This document shows, one piece after another, positions 4,403 through 40,464 of a stretch of 40,464 bases of DNA. A model generated the notes under the pieces. It was given only the letters and a program-made list of their open reading frames with translations, was not told where the DNA came from and ran no database searches. Every line of letters begins with the position of its first letter. Within the stretch, counting starts at the first letter, position 1. The DNA comes from a virus (lineage: Duplodnaviria; Caudoviricetes): positions 1 to 40,464 of IMG/VR virus record IMGVR_UViG_3300049042_000216. One strand, 5' to 3'. The position numbers were made by a program, and so were the translations under genes.

Positions 4403-6868
4403 CTAGGTCAGCGTCACTGATTTCCAAGTTGTTCCGTTGTGAATATGCAGCGTGTTGCTGTTTGTGTTGAAGAACATCGGCACATTGGACCCGGTGACAT
4501 TGGTCGGCGTGCTGGACGGGTTGCTGCTTGATGCCGGGATGTAAACGAACCCATCGCCCATCGACGAGAAGCCGGCAGGCCCAATGAAGTCGCCGCCGTC
4601 CTGTATCCAGGAGGCCTCCTTGATCAGCTTTCCGGTCGAGCCGTCGAACAGCGCGAAGGTGTTGCTGGTGCTGCTGCTTGGGCCCACCACGTCGCCGCTG
4701 CCACCTCCGGTCGCTGCGATGGTGATCGAGCCGGCCCCATTGGTGATCGTGATGCCGGTGCCCGCCGTCAGCGTAGCCTTGTTGAGCGTGCCTCCGGTGG
4801 TGTTGCCGATGAGGATCTGGCCATTGGTAAACGAGTTGCTTTGCCCAGTGCCGCCGTTGATCACACCGAGCGTGCCCGTGATCCCGCTTGAAAGCGAGAT
4901 CAGCGGAAGGTCGACGCCCTGAATCGTGGACATGACCACGTTGCTGCCGTCGCCTCGGAGGTACTGACCATTGGTTGCCGACCCTGCAAGATTTGTGATG
5001 GCCGCGGAAGCAGTGGTCGCTCCGGTGCCGCCATTGGCGATGGCCAGAGTGCCGGTCATCGTCACCGAGCCCGATGTGGTGATCGGTCCTCCGGTGAATG
5101 ACATCCCGGTGGTTCCGCCGTTCACGCCCACCGACGACACGCTCGCGCCCGACGTCATGCTGTCCAGCTTGGCCGCGTAGGTGCTGGTCATGTAGCCGTT
5201 CTGCGTGCTGCTCGCCGCGTTCTGGCTGATGACTGGCGTGGTGCTGCCTGTAGCCACGCTGATGTTTGCACCGCCCGAGGCCGACACATTGGTCACCGTA
5301 CCGGTGTTGCTGGTGTAGCCTGCCGGGTTGCTTGCTGCGTAGGCCCCGAGGTTGGTGAGTGCGCCCGCAGCCGTGGTGGCCCCGGTGCCGCCCTTGTTGA
5401 TGGGCAGCGTGCTGGTGATCGTACCGGCGGAGCCCAGCACGTCGATGTTCCACGTGCCGGTCGCCCCGGTGCCATCCAAGGCCGGAATGTCGGTGCCGAT
5501 GGCTAGGCCGAGGTTTGTGCGGGCTCCCGATGCCGACGTAGCGCCAGTGCCTCCGGAGGCCACAACCAGTGTGCCGGTCATCGACAGTGTGCCAGCGGAT
5601 GTCACAGGGCCGCCTGTGAAGCTGAACCCGCTGGTTCCGCCGTCGGCATTGACGCTCGTCACACTGCCAGATGCCACCGCAGCATTCAGCGTGGAGCCGG
5701 ACATGGACAGGTTGGTGCCGAGCGTGATCTCGCCCAGGGCAGTGCCCGAGGCATTCGATCCGATCAACTTCGCCACCGCGGAGGCCGCCTGCATCTTAGC
5801 GTAGGTCACCGCGTTGTTGGCAATGGTAGCCGCAAATGACCCTGTGCCAGTGCCTGTCACATCCCCGGTGAGCGTGATGGTCTGGTCGCCGGTGTTGCTG
5901 CCCGAGAGGTTTGACCCTGTGACATTGCCTGTCGCAGCCACCAAGGTCGGCGTGATGGCGCCCAAAGCCAGACTGATGGCCGGGGTGGTCGTCGGGTTGG
6001 TGACCGTGCCGCTGACGCCGTTGGCCGTGGTGACCGAGACCGAGGTGACCGTTCCACCATTGCTCGTGTAGTTGTTGGGATTCGACGCAGGATAGGCGCC
6101 CAGGCTTGTCAGGGCCCCGGCCTCGGTGGTTGCACCTGTTCCGCCCGAGGCAACGGCTAGGACGCCGCCCAGCGTGATGGTGCCGCTGCTGGTGATGGGC
6201 CCGCCCGAGGTGGTCAGGCCTGTCGTGCCGCCCGAGACGTTGACGCTTGTGACGCCGCCGCCGGTAGGTCCCGGAGGGCCGGAAGGCCCGGTGGGTCCAG
6301 CAGGCCCCTGGGGACCTTGCAGACCGCCGGCACCGAGGGGCTTGGTGGCTCCGGTGTCGAGCCGGGTGATCTCCAGCGTGGTGTAGATCTCGGGCTGCCC
6401 GATATTAGAGGCAATGCCAAGGCCGTCTGCATGGCCGCCGCGCTCGCAGTAGTACTCCAGCCGGTAGACGTTGTCCTTGTGCGGCGTGATGCGCAAATTC
6501 AGGGACACTTCCATGTCCACGCCGTTGTTGATGTAGAGCGATGGGCCGTACCCGATGACCACCGAGTTGGTCACGTCGTAGATCCGCAGCCTAGTTCCGC
6601 GGGTGAAGTGGAACGGTGCCAGCACCTTCACCTGGTAATCGCCGGCAGCCACCTTCCACTCATTGGACGCAAGGTCGATGATCAGGCCATTCGGATCGCT
6701 GCTGATGGTGTTGAGCGTCCGGGTTGTCCACACAGCAGTCACCGCGGTTCCGCCTGCGACGTTGTTGTTCTTCACGTCCTGCAGCACCGCGATCTTCAGG
6801 GTCAGGCTGTCGACGTCCTTCCTCAACTTGTTGATGAGGATCGTGCTGGTCTGGCTATCGTAGCTCAT
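4403..6868 (-). CDS. tail fibre protein with short collagen-like segment
   Basis: GxY run (GLQGPQGPAGPTGPSGPPGPTG), repeated GGTGAT units, G/T/S-rich, ends IHNGTTWKS. Confidence 0.85.
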   Translation of the reverse strand: MSYDSQTSTILINKLRKDVDSLTLKIAVLQDVKNNNVAGGTAVTAVWTTRTLNTISSDPNGLIIDLASNEWKVAAGDYQVKVLAPFHFTRGTRLRIYDVTNSVVIGYGPSLYINNGVDMEVSLNLRITPHKDNVYRLEYYCERGGHADGLGIASNIGQPEIYTTLEITRLDTGATKPLGAGGLQGPQGPAGPTGPSGPPGPTGGGVTSVNVSGGTTGLTTSGGPITSSGTITLGGVLAVASGGTGATTEAGALTSLGAYPASNPNNYTSNGGTVTSVSVTTANGVSGTVTNPTTTPAISLALGAITPTLVAATGNVTGSNLSGSNTGDQTITLTGDVTGTGTGSFAATIANNAVTYAKMQAASAVAKLIGSNASGTALGEITLGTNLSMSGSTLNAAVASGSVTSVNADGGTSGFSFTGGPVTSAGTLSMTGTLVVASGGTGATSASGARTNLGLAIGTDIPALDGTGATGTWNIDVLGSAGTITSTLPINKGGTGATTAAGALTNLGAYAASNPAGYTSNTGTVTNVSASGGANISVATGSTTPVISQNAASSTQNGYMTSTYAAKLDSMTSGASVSSVGVNGGTTGMSFTGGPITTSGSVTMTGTLAIANGGTGATTASAAITNLAGSATNGQYLRGDGSNVVMSTIQGVDLPLISLSSGITGTLGVINGGTGQSNSFTNGQILIGNTTGGTLNKATLTAGTGITITNGAGSITIAATGGGSGDVVGPSSSTSNTFALFDGSTGKLIKEASWIQDGGDFIGPAGFSSMGDGFVYIPASSSNPSSTPTNVTGSNVPMFFNTNSNTLHIHNGTTWKSVTLT

Positions 6869-9800
6869 TGCTTGGCCTTACGTCGGAGGATTCTCTGCGC
6901 CTCGTCAAGGCTGCTGGCGATGCCTATCAGGCTTCCTGCGGGGCCGTAGAGGCGAAGGGAGCCTTTGGCCTTACCCGGGAGCGCACGGTAGCCCCCGGTG
7001 AATGTGTAGGCACCGGGCATAGCGGAGTCGGGGGAGGGCATATACCGGAAGTCCTGAGGCTTGCCGTACACCGGGTCCTTTACAAACACCGTGTTGCCGA
7101 CGCTGAAAGACTCGGAGCCACCAGTGACGGGCTGATCGGTGCGCTTGTCGTAGAAGTAGGAGTGCTTTTTTGGGTCCATTCCAACCGGGGTCCACGTTTC
7201 AATATCCGATGGGATTGACCTGTCTTTGATTAGCCTTCCTTCAACTGTAGCAATCGGATGTTTTGCAGCCCTACCTTCCTTGATCGCAACCGCACCCAGT
7301 TTGGATTCCTCGCTTCCTTCTTTTACGAAGAATCTTACCGGACCAGAAAGGCGGACATTGGTGTCGTAGCCAATCCTGTCGCCTACATTTCCGGGGGTTG
7401 CAGGTTCGTGAATCGTTTGAACATATGTGCCCCTGTTCAGGAATGCAGGGATGTCGATGCGGACGCCAACAGGAGATCCTTCTGGAAGCGATTCGTGTTC
7501 ACGCCAGAACGGCTGCTTTGATGAAGATAGGGCAGCTTTAGCTTTTTCCTCGGTAGGCGGGTTGGCGAAGTCAAGGTTGCGACCCACCTCACGCTGGATG
7601 CCGGCGGGCATATAGCGCTGGGCGCCTACTTCGCCCTGGGGCGTGGTAGCCTCATCCGCAGCACGTCCCTCGGTCCAAGTCCATTCGGGCATAAGCCCGG
7701 TTTTCTGATCAGCAAATACGGTGTCCTCTGTCTTAGCGGTGCGGTTGCGCTCGCCGTAGGGACCGTAGTTCAGCCAACTGTTTTGACCTCGAGTCTCAGT
7801 GGTGATGGCGCCACGAGCAGGCCCCGTGAAGAGTCGAATGTGCGCCTGCCAGGCGTTCTCCTCGCCCTGAGCCCGAAAACCGGAACCCTCAATGCCGTGA
7901 CCGAAAGCGTCATGCACGGCGCGGAATAGGTCGTTGGCATAAACGGTTCTCAATTCACCGTTGGGTCCACCGAACGGCCAACGCAAACCAGTCTCGGCAA
8001 GCATTGGGTTGGAATCTGGATTGAAGTCCTCCTTGGTTCCAAACCCAGAGTCTGTTGGGAAAACTCCCATCGACTTGTTTGCGCGGAGGTCGCGCATGGC
8101 GTTGAACGGAGATGATGCGTACTGCTGCCCCGCATCCGAATTAATATCAATAAACCAGAACTTGTATCCCGCTGAATCAAGTGCTCGATACTGATCCGTG
8201 GTTTGACGGATCAGGTCCTGGTAGGCCTCGCGCACCGCAGGATCTTGCGGTGCATGAGGCATCTCATCGTAAGCCTGAGCAATCCTGCGGGCACGGTCCT
8301 CGTCTACCTCAACGTATTCTGATTGGCGACGGAGATTGATTCCGTTGTCCTTGGCGTACTGCTCTGCGACGCCAACCAAGCTCTGGTCTGGGCCACTAGC
8401 GCCTTTGACCTGTGGAGCGCCTGCAAGCGGCGCAAGGTTCCCAGACGAATACCGTCCTTCTCCTCGGTCTCCACGTCTTCCTGATTGTTCTGCGGTTTGT
8501 TCATAAAGTTTTTCTCCTCCGGCAGGCATGAAATACGCTAGACGAGAAGGTGAGTCAATTTGCCTTCTCTTCCATTTCTCACCTGCCTCCGGCGTGGTTC
8601 CATATCCGGCTGCCTTGTTGGCTTTTTGCGCTTCACCCAACTGGCGGTCATTCAGGGCCGGTAGTTTTTCAAGACCAGGGAACATCACCTCATGCGGTTC
8701 AACACGTCCCCGAATGCGATCCCACAGGGTCCATTGAGCCGGGAAGACAGCAACACCAAGTTCGTTCGCCCGGCGCTCGTTAATCTCAAGTGCTGAACGG
8801 TAGGAATCCGACATGACCTGGAAGTCCTTGGGAGTTTCCACCCAATCGACCGATTTGATGTATTCCGGGGCATTCGGGTTGATCCCACCCTTCTTCGCAA
8901 GAAGCGTTGCCTTGCGGCTTCCCATGGCAGCAAACACGGCCTCGTTGACGAACTTTTGAACACGGTCTGCACCGTAGATCTGTGCTTGTCCTAGGACGTC
9001 ATCAATGGTTTTCGCCCGGGTTGCCGTTGGGTCTGGTAGCGAATCCAAGGTAGATGCCATTTCAGCCTTGATGCTCTTGATGCGTTTATCGTTTTTGGCC
9101 TTTAGCTTCTTGAGTGTTTGCTCATCGTTTTTGTTGAGCTCTACAATCCGTTTTCCTTTTTCCTCGGCATTTTTCAGGCGGCGATTGAATGCCGACGTGG
9201 CTTCCTTGGACTTCTTGAGCATTGAGTTGAAACGGTCGACAACAATGCCTTCAAACCGTTTGCGCAACTCCGGGTTACCCAGCAACTCCTGGCCAAAGAT
9301 GCGGGCCATGTGGCGGTCCATGGCCGAGATGGATGCCTTGAGCGGATCTTGCCACACAGATCCAAATGAGCCTGTCTTGGTGCCAAACCCTTTGACTTGA
9401 GTTGTCAGCTTGTCGACGAAGTCTGCCCAGGATTCGTTGGCCTTCTTGACGAAGAAGTCTGGGTTCTTGGTGAACAACCGAGCGGCATTTACGATGTTCG
9501 AGATGTCTGCGGTGATCGCAATACCAAGGCCGCCCTTGCCTGCGGAGATGAACCCTAACTCCTTTTTCAGTCGTTGGTTCAGCTCCTTCAGATTTTCTTT
9601 GGTCGGGTTCTCTGGGTATAGATCTGCAAACTTGCGCACATCTTCCATCGAACCGAATCGGAGTCTGGACTGCCCCATTTCATTGGGCAGCAGCGGTGCG
9701 TTTGGTGAGAGCATACCAAACACAATCGAGTTAAAACTTGAGACCTTCTCCCCAGGTGTCGGGGCCATGGTTGACGCCAGCTTTGCCGTCAGTTTGGCGT

Positions 9801-12800
9801 GCGTCGTCTCAGGAAGGTTTGCTACGTCGACTGGGTTGGCTTTAAGCCAGAGGAGGTCGTAGTACGTGAACTTGCCCTCAAGGCCGCCGGGTATTCTCGC
9901 AGGATTTCCAGCCACGTCCGAGGGGATGTTTGCGATTTCTGAAAGAGGTCCAAGGTTTGGGACGCCGAATGCTTTGCCGTATTCCTCAAACTCCGTTGGA
10001 GTCCAGTCTTTCGGTTCTTTGCCTTTGAAGAATATGTTGCCGCTTTCATCTCTTGTAACTCCCTGAGCCTCAAAGGATGCACGTCGTGGCAAAGATTCTG
10101 CAACCTGTTTTCTAGCTGCGTCCTCTTCAGCCGGCATGAACCTCACATCCCCCTCTTGTCGAACCGCCCCGCCTTGGCCTTGGCCTTCTTGGCCACCGAC
10201 AGCGCGATTGCGACCGCCTGCTTCTGCGGTTTGCCGGACTTCATCTCGCGCCGGATATTGCTGCTTACGGACTTCTGGCTGTAGCCTTGTTTGAGTGGCA
10301 TAATCTTTTTCTGCTTTGAGTTTTGCTTGTCCTTCGGTGTCGAAGATCCCGGCGGTTGATCCATCGGGGCCATACAGGCGGAACTTCCCGCCCTTCGACA
10401 AGATCCGGTAGCCGCCCACCAGGTCGCTCTGGACGCTGGTCTCACCAACCTGCTCGGCAGGCTGGAAGTTGAGCTGCGTGCGGCGGTAGCTTGACTGCTC
10501 TCCCATGTCACCGGACCACGGGATTTCCGTGCCGGTGGTGTTGGTGTTCTGGATGCGCTCAATGCGCAGGTCCTGGTAGACCGACCCGCCCTTGCGGCTG
10601 GCCTCGTAGCCAGCGGTCGGCAGGTTGATCATAGTGTCGCCCTTCTTGGGAACGGCGCCCATCACCTCGTTGAAGAAGTTGCGCTTCTTGGCGCCTTCAA
10701 TACCGCCACCGAGAGCCTCAGCGGAAGGCGCGGCGTTCTGCTCCGCAATGTTCTTCAGGTACACGTCCTTCAGCGTGGACATGGCCTGGTCGTAGTTGCC
10801 GAACAGGTTCTTGTAGGCGGGCTTGGTCAGGGCCTTGTACATCCGGGCCTGCACCTTGCCCCAGTCGACAGCCTTGATGTTCACACCACCCTTGCTGTTG
10901 ATCGAGATCCCGTAGGGCAGGAACAGCTTCTCGGACTCTCCGAACACGCCAGACTTGCCCGTGGAACCGTAAACCTTCCAGTACCTTCCCTCCATCAGCG
11001 TGCCGTCGCGGATGGCTGTGGCGATGTCGATCAGGCTGCGCGATGTGGACGGGCTGAAGATACCGCTCTTCGATACTGCATCAGCCTCGGCAAGGCTCAG
11101 TCGGCCTTCGATGATCGGGTTACCCTTGGCATCAAGCCCGCTGACGCTGCCACGCTCGTTCTGGGGCACCGTCTCGATGACCTGCATCGTGCGGTTGGCC
11201 ACGTTTGCGGTCTTGGCGGCTAGCTCTGCCTTTGAGAGCGGTCGGATAATGCTGCCATCCGGACCCGTCATAAACAGGTCCGAGTAGCCACGGGCCATGA
11301 TGACAGCATTCTGCTGCGCCTGCGTCATCTTGTTGATGTCCACCTTCTGCTCGGTAGGCTCGTAGCCTTCCTTGGGAGTCACCAGGTTCTTGATGGCATC
11401 TTCCATCCAGTCGAGCTTGATGCGCCGTCCGTTGGCATCGTAGAAGGTACGGGCAACAGGGTCGAAACCAGCCTGCAATGCACGCCGAGTGAAACGCTCC
11501 GAGACAGCCTCCTTGGCGTTGTTCAAGGCCATCTCAATGAACGAAGGAATCCGACCCGGCAGCATCGTCTTCGGGTCTTTGCCTTTGAGCATTTCCTGCG
11601 TGTAGTACGCGGAGAACTCATCGGTGATGCGCTTGAGAGCTTCGACCTGCTGTGCGCGTTGGAGATTCGGGTCAAACGAGTCGCGCAATTCGGTGCGTAC
11701 ACGGTCGGCAATAACACGCCCACCACTCGCTTCAATCTTGTCAGCGTAACGATTGGCGAAGTCGGAGAACTGCTGTTTGAAAGCGGGATCGGTTGAAGCC
11801 GCATCAATCACTCGTCCACCAAGCTGACTGACCATGTCCTGCGTAATACGTGCGTGCAGGATCTCGTGCGGAATAGCTTCAGGTTTCGCACGGTCGACAT
11901 TGATCAGGATCGTCGGCTTGCCGCTCTTGATGTTGTCGGGACCGATTGCAACACCGGCATAGTTCACCGTCTGCAGAGCAGCAGGAACCGTGTCTGCGTC
12001 GGTGTGGAAGATGACATCGACGCCAGCACCTTCAGCACCGGCAACCTCGGACAGAGCCTTGGTGAGCTGCTTGTTGTTGAGACTGGCGTACAGTTGAGCG
12101 CGAGCATCGGCATCCTTGATCGTCGCAGTCTGCTCACCGGCCACTGGGTCAACGTAGGTGAACTGCACCTCGGTAGGCCGAGTGTTCAGGTCATCGACCG
12201 CGGTCTGTCGGACACGTCGGCCATTGAAGACGTTTGCCTCAACGGCTTTTCCAAGCCTAAATCCGCCATCAAAAACACCAAATGCAGCGCCACTACCAAT
12301 AGCGGCTGAAATTGCGTCTGCCTCCTCTCCGCTCATTGCCGCAAGCAATCCACCACCAGCGGCAGCGCCTGTCATTGGAACAAGGATATTTGCGGCCAGC
12401 TTGACTGGTGTTTCAAGTCCGCTTCTTGCAAGAGCGGTTCCTAGCGCACGAGCTTTTGAAGAAGCGCCTTCAGCAGCAGCAATGCGTTCCCCTGCGCCTA
12501 GAAGGCCGCGCTGGACAGGAGTAAGCGCGGGACCACGTGATGCCGCACCGGCCTCTCCAACGGTCTCCATGGTGGCTCCTAGGCCTTTGGTTGCACCAAT
12601 TACTTGTGATGCAGTTCCTAGGACAGGAACATTCATCGTAATTGGAATGCCGGCAGCTTCACCAACTGCAATCGTGGTCGTCCCTTTGGAGACGCCCTCC
12701 TGCACAGCCTGACCCATCTGCGGAGATCCGGTGACTTTAGCGGTGAGGCTTCCAGCCAAATTCTCAGGAACACGCCCAAGCTGACTTACACGTTCTCCTG

Positions 12801-13578
12801 CCCCCCTAAGCATTTCGGCTGCACGCGGAATCTGAGCAACAGCTTGTTGAGCCATTACGGAAGCCAGCTTTCCACCTCCGGCAAATGCAATGGATGACGG
12901 GTCAGCAAGGAATCCACCGACCTCAAGGCCAGCCTGACCAATGGCTTCCTGCGGAATGTTGTAGGTTTGCAGGAACTCTTGAGAAGCTGGAACGCGCTGA
13001 TCTTGAGGTGCATTGGCTAGCGCCAATTTTCGATCAATGTCTGCTTTCTCAAGAAAGTCTACATACTTGATGTCATCAAGCATGGATTCCATACGAGCGC
13101 GATCCTCTTTGCTTTGGATGAGAAGAGGAAGTTGATCGAGTTTGTCTACTATGGAAGCTGAGATTCCTCGGTATAGGCTTTGAGCCTTCAGCTTTGCTTG
13201 AATCGCTGTTTCGGCAAAAGTTGCTGCGGCAACGTCGCCCTTAGTGGCTCCTTCAGGAGGCTGATAAATGTCGCCAATGGATTCTCCAAGCCTGTACGGA
13301 AGCGCTGCAATGTGGGCAAGTCCCGGTCCAATTGCAGCGGCGGCTCCCTTCAGGTCGATTGACTTTTCCTTTCCAACCTTCAGGTAGTCGAGGAACTCCT
13401 GCTTGCTCGGAGTGTAGTCGGTCTGCGCTGCCTTGTACTGCAGCACCTTATTGTAGGAGTCCTCTGGGGTGGGATCAACCTCGATGCCTCCCTGCACAAA
13501 ACCGCCTTGCGCCATTGGAGGCGCGGCCTGTTGCTGCGGCTCTGCGTCGACAACAATTCCGCCTTCAACGAATGGCAT
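6865..13578 (-). CDS. giant internal virion / ejection protein, large polyvalent-protein type (2237 aa)
   Basis: Third of three ejection-like genes; HEILH and HDAFGH metal-binding motifs; HhH-like module; recurring FMP/YMP junctions. Confidence 0.75.
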   Translation of the reverse strand: MPFVEGGIVVDAEPQQQAAPPMAQGGFVQGGIEVDPTPEDSYNKVLQYKAAQTDYTPSKQEFLDYLKVGKEKSIDLKGAAAAIGPGLAHIAALPYRLGESIGDIYQPPEGATKGDVAAATFAETAIQAKLKAQSLYRGISASIVDKLDQLPLLIQSKEDRARMESMLDDIKYVDFLEKADIDRKLALANAPQDQRVPASQEFLQTYNIPQEAIGQAGLEVGGFLADPSSIAFAGGGKLASVMAQQAVAQIPRAAEMLRGAGERVSQLGRVPENLAGSLTAKVTGSPQMGQAVQEGVSKGTTTIAVGEAAGIPITMNVPVLGTASQVIGATKGLGATMETVGEAGAASRGPALTPVQRGLLGAGERIAAAEGASSKARALGTALARSGLETPVKLAANILVPMTGAAAGGGLLAAMSGEEADAISAAIGSGAAFGVFDGGFRLGKAVEANVFNGRRVRQTAVDDLNTRPTEVQFTYVDPVAGEQTATIKDADARAQLYASLNNKQLTKALSEVAGAEGAGVDVIFHTDADTVPAALQTVNYAGVAIGPDNIKSGKPTILINVDRAKPEAIPHEILHARITQDMVSQLGGRVIDAASTDPAFKQQFSDFANRYADKIEASGGRVIADRVRTELRDSFDPNLQRAQQVEALKRITDEFSAYYTQEMLKGKDPKTMLPGRIPSFIEMALNNAKEAVSERFTRRALQAGFDPVARTFYDANGRRIKLDWMEDAIKNLVTPKEGYEPTEQKVDINKMTQAQQNAVIMARGYSDLFMTGPDGSIIRPLSKAELAAKTANVANRTMQVIETVPQNERGSVSGLDAKGNPIIEGRLSLAEADAVSKSGIFSPSTSRSLIDIATAIRDGTLMEGRYWKVYGSTGKSGVFGESEKLFLPYGISINSKGGVNIKAVDWGKVQARMYKALTKPAYKNLFGNYDQAMSTLKDVYLKNIAEQNAAPSAEALGGGIEGAKKRNFFNEVMGAVPKKGDTMINLPTAGYEASRKGGSVYQDLRIERIQNTNTTGTEIPWSGDMGEQSSYRRTQLNFQPAEQVGETSVQSDLVGGYRILSKGGKFRLYGPDGSTAGIFDTEGQAKLKAEKDYATQTRLQPEVRKQQYPARDEVRQTAEAGGRNRAVGGQEGQGQGGAVRQEGDVRFMPAEEDAARKQVAESLPRRASFEAQGVTRDESGNIFFKGKEPKDWTPTEFEEYGKAFGVPNLGPLSEIANIPSDVAGNPARIPGGLEGKFTYYDLLWLKANPVDVANLPETTHAKLTAKLASTMAPTPGEKVSSFNSIVFGMLSPNAPLLPNEMGQSRLRFGSMEDVRKFADLYPENPTKENLKELNQRLKKELGFISAGKGGLGIAITADISNIVNAARLFTKNPDFFVKKANESWADFVDKLTTQVKGFGTKTGSFGSVWQDPLKASISAMDRHMARIFGQELLGNPELRKRFEGIVVDRFNSMLKKSKEATSAFNRRLKNAEEKGKRIVELNKNDEQTLKKLKAKNDKRIKSIKAEMASTLDSLPDPTATRAKTIDDVLGQAQIYGADRVQKFVNEAVFAAMGSRKATLLAKKGGINPNAPEYIKSVDWVETPKDFQVMSDSYRSALEINERRANELGVAVFPAQWTLWDRIRGRVEPHEVMFPGLEKLPALNDRQLGEAQKANKAAGYGTTPEAGEKWKRRQIDSPSRLAYFMPAGGEKLYEQTAEQSGRRGDRGEGRYSSGNLAPLAGAPQVKGASGPDQSLVGVAEQYAKDNGINLRRQSEYVEVDEDRARRIAQAYDEMPHAPQDPAVREAYQDLIRQTTDQYRALDSAGYKFWFIDINSDAGQQYASSPFNAMRDLRANKSMGVFPTDSGFGTKEDFNPDSNPMLAETGLRWPFGGPNGELRTVYANDLFRAVHDAFGHGIEGSGFRAQGEENAWQAHIRLFTGPARGAITTETRGQNSWLNYGPYGERNRTAKTEDTVFADQKTGLMPEWTWTEGRAADEATTPQGEVGAQRYMPAGIQREVGRNLDFANPPTEEKAKAALSSSKQPFWREHESLPEGSPVGVRIDIPAFLNRGTYVQTIHEPATPGNVGDRIGYDTNVRLSGPVRFFVKEGSEESKLGAVAIKEGRAAKHPIATVEGRLIKDRSIPSDIETWTPVGMDPKKHSYFYDKRTDQPVTGGSESFSVGNTVFVKDPVYGKPQDFRYMPSPDSAMPGAYTFTGGYRALPGKAKGSLRLYGPAGSLIGIASSLDEAQRILRRKAKQ
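8304..8504 (-). CDS. candidate nested out-of-frame gene (66 aa)
   Basis: GGAGGAG 9 nt upstream of ATG, inside a low-complexity linker of the giant ORF. Confidence 0.4.
   Translation of the reverse strand: MNKPQNNQEDVETEEKDGIRLGTLRRLQALHRSKALVAQTRAWLASQSSTPRTTESISVANQNTLR
10143..10301 (-). CDS. nested small basic phage protein (52 aa) in alternate frame
   Basis: MPLKQGYSQKSVSSNIRREMKSGKPQKQAVAIALSVAKKAK resembles a small protein I recall as a standalone gene in other phages. Confidence 0.7.
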   Translation of the reverse strand: MPLKQGYSQKSVSSNIRREMKSGKPQKQAVAIALSVAKKAKAKAGRFDKRGM

Positions 13579-40281: not shown

Positions 40282-40464
40282 AGCTTGGCCTCCTTGGTTT
40301 TGTGTTGCTGCATCCAGTTATCAATCGCTTTCAGGATATCGGAATGGCTGTTCTCGACGCTCTCCAGACGTTTAATCCTGTTATTCAAACGATTCAGTTC
40401 TCGGACGATGAACTGTGGATGAAGATCCTTTAGGTTGCCACCATCAGGAGTGTGGATTGTGAAT
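40278..40464 (-). CDS. 3' half of junction-spanning hypothetical protein
   Basis: In frame with 108..1; ends KTKEAKL in the junction motif. Confidence 0.8.
   Translation of the reverse strand, partial: FTIHTPDGGNLKDLHPQFIVRELNRLNNRIKRLESVENSHSDILKAIDNWMQQHKTKEAKL
40407..40464. repeat. 58-bp terminal direct repeat (copy 2)
   Basis: Identical to 1-58. Confidence 0.95.

Follow-up and report, generated by a model that had tools for sequence, protein, structure and literature searches.

The locus described here raises the question of whether a 52-codon open reading frame lying out of frame within a giant phage gene is a gene in its own right, and, if so, which of the two readings is the older and how they came to share the same DNA. 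The window (the whole stretch of DNA analyzed, 40,464 bases) is a complete phage record with direct terminal repeats at positions 1 to 58 and 40407 to 40464. The phage genes, among them those for an SU10-type capsid, a terminase, and a tail-fiber-like protein, read from the minus strand. The features discussed below are collected in Table 1.

Table 1. Positions of the nested gene, the giant gene, and their landmarks in the window
Feature	Position	Strand	Remarks
Nested small basic gene	10301-10143	minus	+1 frame of giant gene; 52 aa, PHROG 2423
Start region of nested gene	10302..10323	minus	A-rich (59% A), unstructured (-3.0 kcal/mol), no Shine-Dalgarno motif
Giant-frame linker	10141..10302	minus	Residues 1093-1146, Q/G/R-rich; apparent by-product reading of the small gene in the -1 frame
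Giant gene	6865..13578	minus	2237 aa, polyvalent type, likely internal virion (ejection) protein; conserved N-half, variable cassette C-half
HEILH (HExxH metallopeptidase motif)	11854..11868	minus	Residue 571, giant core
Module 1	10303..10470	minus	Internal copy of a ca. 55-aa module, following the NFQP joint; homologue of module 2
Module 2	6868..7047	minus	Terminal copy; predicted three strands plus helix, pLDDT 84
RFMP joint motif	10132..10143	minus	Opens the first variable cassette
Further joint motifs	10470 (NFQP), 8535 (YFMP), 7617 and 7047 (RYMP)	minus	

The small gene, its family, and its giant host

The initial annotation, which gave no strand, described a small basic ORF nested out of frame in the giant gene, which reads through it without a stop, and both points were borne out: the ORF is complete, and the giant frame is open across it. 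The minus-strand peptide reads MPLKQGYSQK...RFDKRGM, followed by the stop, while the plus-strand translation of the same interval is an unrelated peptide. The TGA (10145-10143) does overlap the Arg codon of RFMP, as had been noted, but it also overlaps the preceding Val (DV-RFMP), and the Met codon (ATG at 10137) follows after 5 intervening bases. With 14 Lys or Arg residues against 2 Asp or Glu, the peptide has a pI of 11.2. It matches PHROG 2423 with an E value of 1.8e-20 over residues 1 to 44 (a profile match over the conserved 44-aa core), which excludes an ORF open by chance, and it is the only PHROG 2423 copy in the complete genome. Helices are predicted at residues 9 to 21 and 25 to 51, giving a two-helix model with a pLDDT of 74. 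The peptide found no real match in Pfam and no match in a sequence search of the PDB; a fold search with the model returned family members alone, at E values above 0.3, and no significant solved or predicted structural match.

The initial annotation had this family as one that normally stands alone, and the viral matches agree: among the best 80, 71 are not nested, 8 are nested in this giant family, and 1 is nested in an unrelated protein. The family is very widespread, with at least 590 relatives among the 600 stretches listed in the viral scan and 341 GenBank phage records matching the nested peptide. Pbunaviruses carry the gene between the head morphogenesis and head protease genes, and in BcepB1A the PHROG 2423 sequence forms the N terminus of the head maturation protease. 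Neighbors of the stand-alone copies (91 extracted, 59 submitted, 17 unmatched) are head, packaging, or connector genes in 28 of the 42 cases with a PHROG match, at loci that are related to each other. S1_022 (ORF22) of Pbunavirus SCUT-S1, 51% identical to the nested peptide over 43 aa, was detected by mass spectrometry of virion ghosts (DNA released), where 7 peptides gave a coverage of 77% (PMC6521218). By analogy, the nested basic protein is likely packed in the phage head, and it may be a minor but abundant component of the head that binds DNA or the inner wall of the capsid, DNA binding being suggested from charge only.

Junction scans fetched 173 loci, with repeats. The junction was present in 171, as an intact 52- or 56-aa +1 ORF in 167, in shortened form in 3, and cut by the contig end in 1; removal of duplicates and of one cut locus left 115 distinct junctions, including the window. 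The start codon is ATG in all 115, the nested ORFs differ in length only in frame, and the stop stays in one position while being spelled in each of the three possible ways (TAA in 42, TGA in 41, and TAG in 32). In two controls the nested DNA was not part of the bait. A C-terminus bait recovered the nested gene in 41 of 41 giants complete at the 5′ end (of the incomplete giants, 11 truncated ones hold the gene and 11 others end before the site), and a core bait recovered the by-product linker in 68 of 71 proteins. The AT-rich distant relative L448 has kept the nested peptide, its giant frame being rewritten. L249 to L251 share one in-frame shortened nested ORF of 45 aa that is missing part of the conserved core, with both frames open. 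P0217 and P0222, at 82 to 83% core identity, have a different, shorter linker after module 1 (giant residues ca. 1087 to 1115). Given these two kinds of exception, the nested gene is not indispensable at this site. The P0217 linker begins YAIQKQST and, from the protein sequence only, could be an off-frame reading of another small gene. Two matches lay in binned genomes (L252 and L253, contigs binned into Verrucomicrobiota and Gammaproteobacteria genomes); none of the GenBank phages has this junction, and thus no cultured nested example was found.

The giant itself has a conserved N-half of 993 to 1123 codons (n = 89) and a C-half that ranges from 234 to 1567 codons (n = 93, the frameshifted L205 left out). 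Judged by the motif only, HExxH is present in 69 of 71 core-selected relatives, the two misses being short records. Cassettes of the C-half are shuffled among relatives and joined at R/K-F/Y-M-P motifs (RFMP 110 times, RYMP 76, and KFMP 20). A Pfam search of the window's giant gave no real match, its own cassettes being without any Pfam family, ART-PolyVal included; among relatives, ART-PolyVal is found above the cut-off in P0041 and below it in P0016, and PF18760 is listed for many. For the ca. 55-aa module, Pfam gave no real match, a PDB sequence search gave matches at E values above 0.4 only, and Foldseek with the module model gave nothing at E ≤ 0.001, the fold-search matches being generic. 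Its topology fits an AP2/IBD-like DNA-binding fold (a three-stranded sheet plus helix); the AP2 chains, with Z values of 4.1 (rmsd 3.3, 51 residues aligned) and 3.8, ranked behind unrelated entries. From gene position and the account of polyvalent proteins in PMC5512222, we infer that the giant is likely a polyvalent ejection protein, packaged and injected. Its own HExxH peptidase would likely cleave it at the R[FY][MQ]P joints or close to them.

Possibly a second nested gene, a further +1 ORF at 8304-8504 on the minus strand (66 aa, MNKPQNN...) has its start in the linker that follows the YFMP joint. Its start and length are kept in 16 distinct relatives. Over its first 30 codons, one subgroup shows six changes that are silent for the ORF and no change of the opposite type; in the other subgroup the picture is mixed. 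The stop of this ORF may be forced by a giant-frame Val-Asp.

Origin and recurrence of the nesting

The initial annotation proposed that the giant had engulfed a neighbor by read-through. The neighbor part of that proposal stands: in a sister clade the small gene is stand-alone and immediately downstream, 4 to 31 nt after the giant's stop, at 9 of 9 loci. The implied fusion to a separate downstream gene is not supported: in all 8 of the sister giants that were tested (L382 being too short for this), the internal module, cassettes, and terminal module already form one ORF. Since the sister giants already hold the full array, the small gene appears to have moved from behind module 2 to behind module 1, and we consider relocation or insertion into the linker of an existing giant to be the probable origin. 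In the window, module 2 is followed on its 3′ side by the tail-fiber-like gene, with no small gene there.

The small gene could have come to lie behind the internal copy by a recombination event involving both copies of the module in the giant, or by inserting where a short match, ATGCC, is present; loss of the stop and removal of stop codons from the -1 frame would then have followed. Against the 3′ half of nested module 1, the sister terminal module scores above the sister internal one (28.4 versus 21.2 and 24.0 versus 17.2), which would suit a crossover between module copies. The 5′ part and DYA tail of nested module 1 are closer to the sister internal copy, and the tail would suit insertion at the ATGCC match. 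A tree of the modules leaves the identity of the copy unsettled (bootstrap 52). A core tree (quick search) places 17 of 18 nested rows on one side with a support of 99, with L448 among the stand-alone rows on a long branch.

Plain read-through would have the giant end at module 1, lose its stop, run through the small gene, and fuse with a gene beginning at MPAEED. Module 1 is indeed a homologue of the module with which the giant ends, just ahead of the stand-alone gene, in the sister phages, its 3′ half has the resemblance just described, and the small gene is already in the +1 frame at 5 of the 9 sister loci, 4 of them with a 4-nt spacer. We nevertheless regard this course as unlikely, given that in all eight sister giants tested the cassette half belongs to the giant itself. 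Module 1 was for the same reason dropped as proof that the giant formerly ended there. A further argument against read-through comes from the L073 lineage, which has an unrelated HExxH giant: among its 10 loci, 6 have PHROG 2423 nested in the same frame (3 of these do not differ over the stretch displayed) and the other 4 lack it at that one mid-protein site, a pattern of insertion or deletion.

The nesting may also have recurred elsewhere. A search with a profile of the by-product frame matched 636 representatives, of which most short ones look like off-frame gene calls. Among the top 150 matches, 22 are of at least 500 aa: 16 belong to this family, 1 is spurious, and 5 are unrelated large proteins in which, at the protein level, the Met-Pro position is precisely where the linker begins. 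P0067, partial and unlike the linker, was not retained among the independent matches; P0097 was not accepted as a DNA-confirmed nesting, its 35% relative L450 being without a nested gene, nor was L261, a single contig that may contain a frameshift error. In L261:1-1660, a terminase-like frame appears to run through the PHROG 2423 gene into the next gene.

Two DNA-confirmed lineages, five unrelated giants with the linker, and a stand-alone sister state lead us to suggest that small basic head-protein genes may be mobile, self-starting cassettes that have repeatedly settled off-frame in the linkers of giant polyvalent proteins, a generalization that we rate as an even bet. If it is true, many “disordered linkers” of giants would be by-product readings of hidden essential genes missed by gene callers, and overprinting in reverse would have arisen many times.

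Expression and selection

For its start, the nested ATG ranks first among the 50 out-of-frame ATGs in the giant, both for A content and for weakest local fold. The family mean for A content upstream of it is 53%. Giant codons over the nested start are near-fixed as AAA, GCA, GAA, and CAA in relatives, against an overall preference of the giant for AAG and CAG, and a Shine-Dalgarno motif is found in 7 of the 27 listed genes of the phage, the majority being without one. By these sequence measures the start context resembles that of real genes, and the 52-aa protein is likely translated from its own A-rich start. Ribosomes starting internally on the giant's mRNA would yield it as a separate protein, and the giant would be made full length, the same DNA supplying it with a tolerant linker that joins module 1 to the first cassette. 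A search for sigma-70 promoters and terminators over 9700 to 11000 found none. Contigs from RNA runs cover much of the giant; strand, level, and a separate transcript are not readable from them.

It had also been suggested that termination at the nested stop could reinitiate translation at MPAEED, so that restart at the Met of RFMP would give the cassette half as a separate protein. A Met does lie 2 codons past the nested stop in 65 junctions, and in L247 and L248 (L247:1406-1564 and L248:7161-7319, from two assemblies, without difference in the 555 bases compared) the giant frame has gained a TAA within the overlap through a change that leaves the small protein unaltered, splitting the giant into 1038 plus 594 codons; the intact 594-codon downstream frame would need a restart or be dispensable. 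However, the Met is missing within 7 codons of the nested stop in 31 of the 115 junctions, the R/K-F/Y-M-P motif recurs at all cassette joints, and the sister clade has FQP there without a Met. The post-stop Met moreover has an upstream A content at background (23%) and average structure (-9.5 kcal/mol). RFMP thus looks like a repeated domain-joint motif, and we found the suggestion of reinitiation unsupported and rather improbable.

Conservation in the two frames was compared by codon position across relatives, as the initial annotation had advised; both frames are kept open, with purifying selection on the small one. For codons 1 to 37 of 98 distinct cores, the small frame had a pN/pS of 0.18 and the giant frame one of 2.5 (pairwise values, not independent counts), against 0.15 to 0.29 for the giant frame in the 25 codons upstream of the overlap. 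Of the 341 changes counted over a 103-sequence tree, 216 affect the giant while leaving the small protein as it was (72 expected), and 31 affect the small protein while leaving the giant as it was (90 expected). The difference between 0.18 and 2.5 leads us to conclude that the inner gene is old and selected and that the giant's linker is a tolerant by-product frame, as the substitutions indicate. An open -1 frame would by itself be weak evidence, since 28 of 70 non-family copies (including the nested L073) are also stop-free over codons 1 to 37, as are 14% of -1 frames under random synonymous coding.

These same data bear on whether the small ORF is a dead relic, conserved through the giant's need for a linker or because its capture is recent. 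The last 7 nested codons are constrained in both frames (pN/pS 0.43 and 0.56), and the shortened form and alternative linker exist, as such a relic might allow. Against it, the small frame has accumulated silent divergence (pS 0.37) with its protein kept, the stop has been maintained by way of all three codons, and the giant-frame residues vary freely; given the selection data, a relic is very unlikely. The tail itself (10143-10170, minus strand), RFDKRGM plus stop in one frame and VRQ[AE]GDV in the other, is conserved in both frames even in the AT-rich L448. It marks the swap point of the downstream cassettes, and a recombination or RNA signal is possible there.

An assembly or sequencing artifact joining two genes, of which a frame break just 3′ of the nested stop in L205 might be taken as a hint, deserves practically no credence, as it is refuted by the relatives, in which the giant frame is open over the overlap and 50 codons on either side in 113 of 115 distinct junctions (viral and metagenome contigs; the exceptions are L205 and L247). 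This is stronger proof than the runs, which agree with it: one contig of DNA run X1 (possibly the source run) covers 9300 to 11300 with 0 differences and 0 gaps, and no indel is listed for any of 4 DNA runs, with no listed piece of X2 to X4 spanning the whole stretch.

Taken together, we put at roughly 0.75 the probability of the overall reading, namely, that this is a complete PHROG 2423 gene under selection, likely self-started, whose product is likely packed in the head and which likely moved here from behind the giant's stop.

Comparison with known nested genes and polyvalent proteins

Rz1 within Rz of phage lambda is a known nested gene pair. The present pair is like it, and like E within D of phiX174, in being a complete same-strand gene inside another, in a shifted frame, with asymmetric selection. 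In one review, which includes phiX174 E within D as a nested overlapping gene, overlaps are described as arising when a new frame is created by point mutation in an old gene, mostly at +1 and usually without remote homologues (PMC8227390). Here, in contrast, the inner +1 gene would be the old and widespread one and the outer giant linker the new one. Classical de novo overprinting, with a young inner frame of narrow distribution, does not fit, the inner frame having widespread stand-alone homologues and the outer frame being unconstrained. Overlap by loss of a stop codon between neighbors, in which an old gene is overlapped by extension of another frame, is described in PMC2268670. The present overlap differs from that class in being complete and mid-protein, ca. 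1090 codons from either end, and in the apparent repositioning of the small gene.

The giant resembles the polyvalent proteins of Iyer et al. (2017) in its very large size, multiple domains, HExxH zincin-like motif, shuffled cassettes that in relatives include ART-PolyVal, and position in the virion module; for those proteins, self-processing by the peptidase has been proposed, and the accessible part of that account describes no nested genes, overlaps, or linkers (PMC5512222). A literature search, with subscription papers largely outside it, found none that describes a small gene nested within the gene of a giant virion protein.

With the small virion protein of Pbunaviruses (SCUT-S1 ORF22, Ab28 gp35) and the N terminus of the BcepB1A protease, the nested peptide shares its family and its basic two-helix character. 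Those copies are stand-alone or in-frame fusions in head modules, whereas this one is out of frame and has a conserved RFDKRGM tail. The locus points to a small head protein, PHROG 2423, that is uncharacterized although very widespread and that can be tested as a stand-alone gene in cultured Pbunaviruses. It also means that a gene that is conserved and probably structural can go unannotated throughout a clade of freshwater phages. It would show a large protein gaining linker sequence from the off-frame of an old gene. Compared with the gene-in-gene pairs named above, the usual genealogy appears reversed, and with the states before (the sister clade) and after both known, it is possible to study directly how a full overlap is born.
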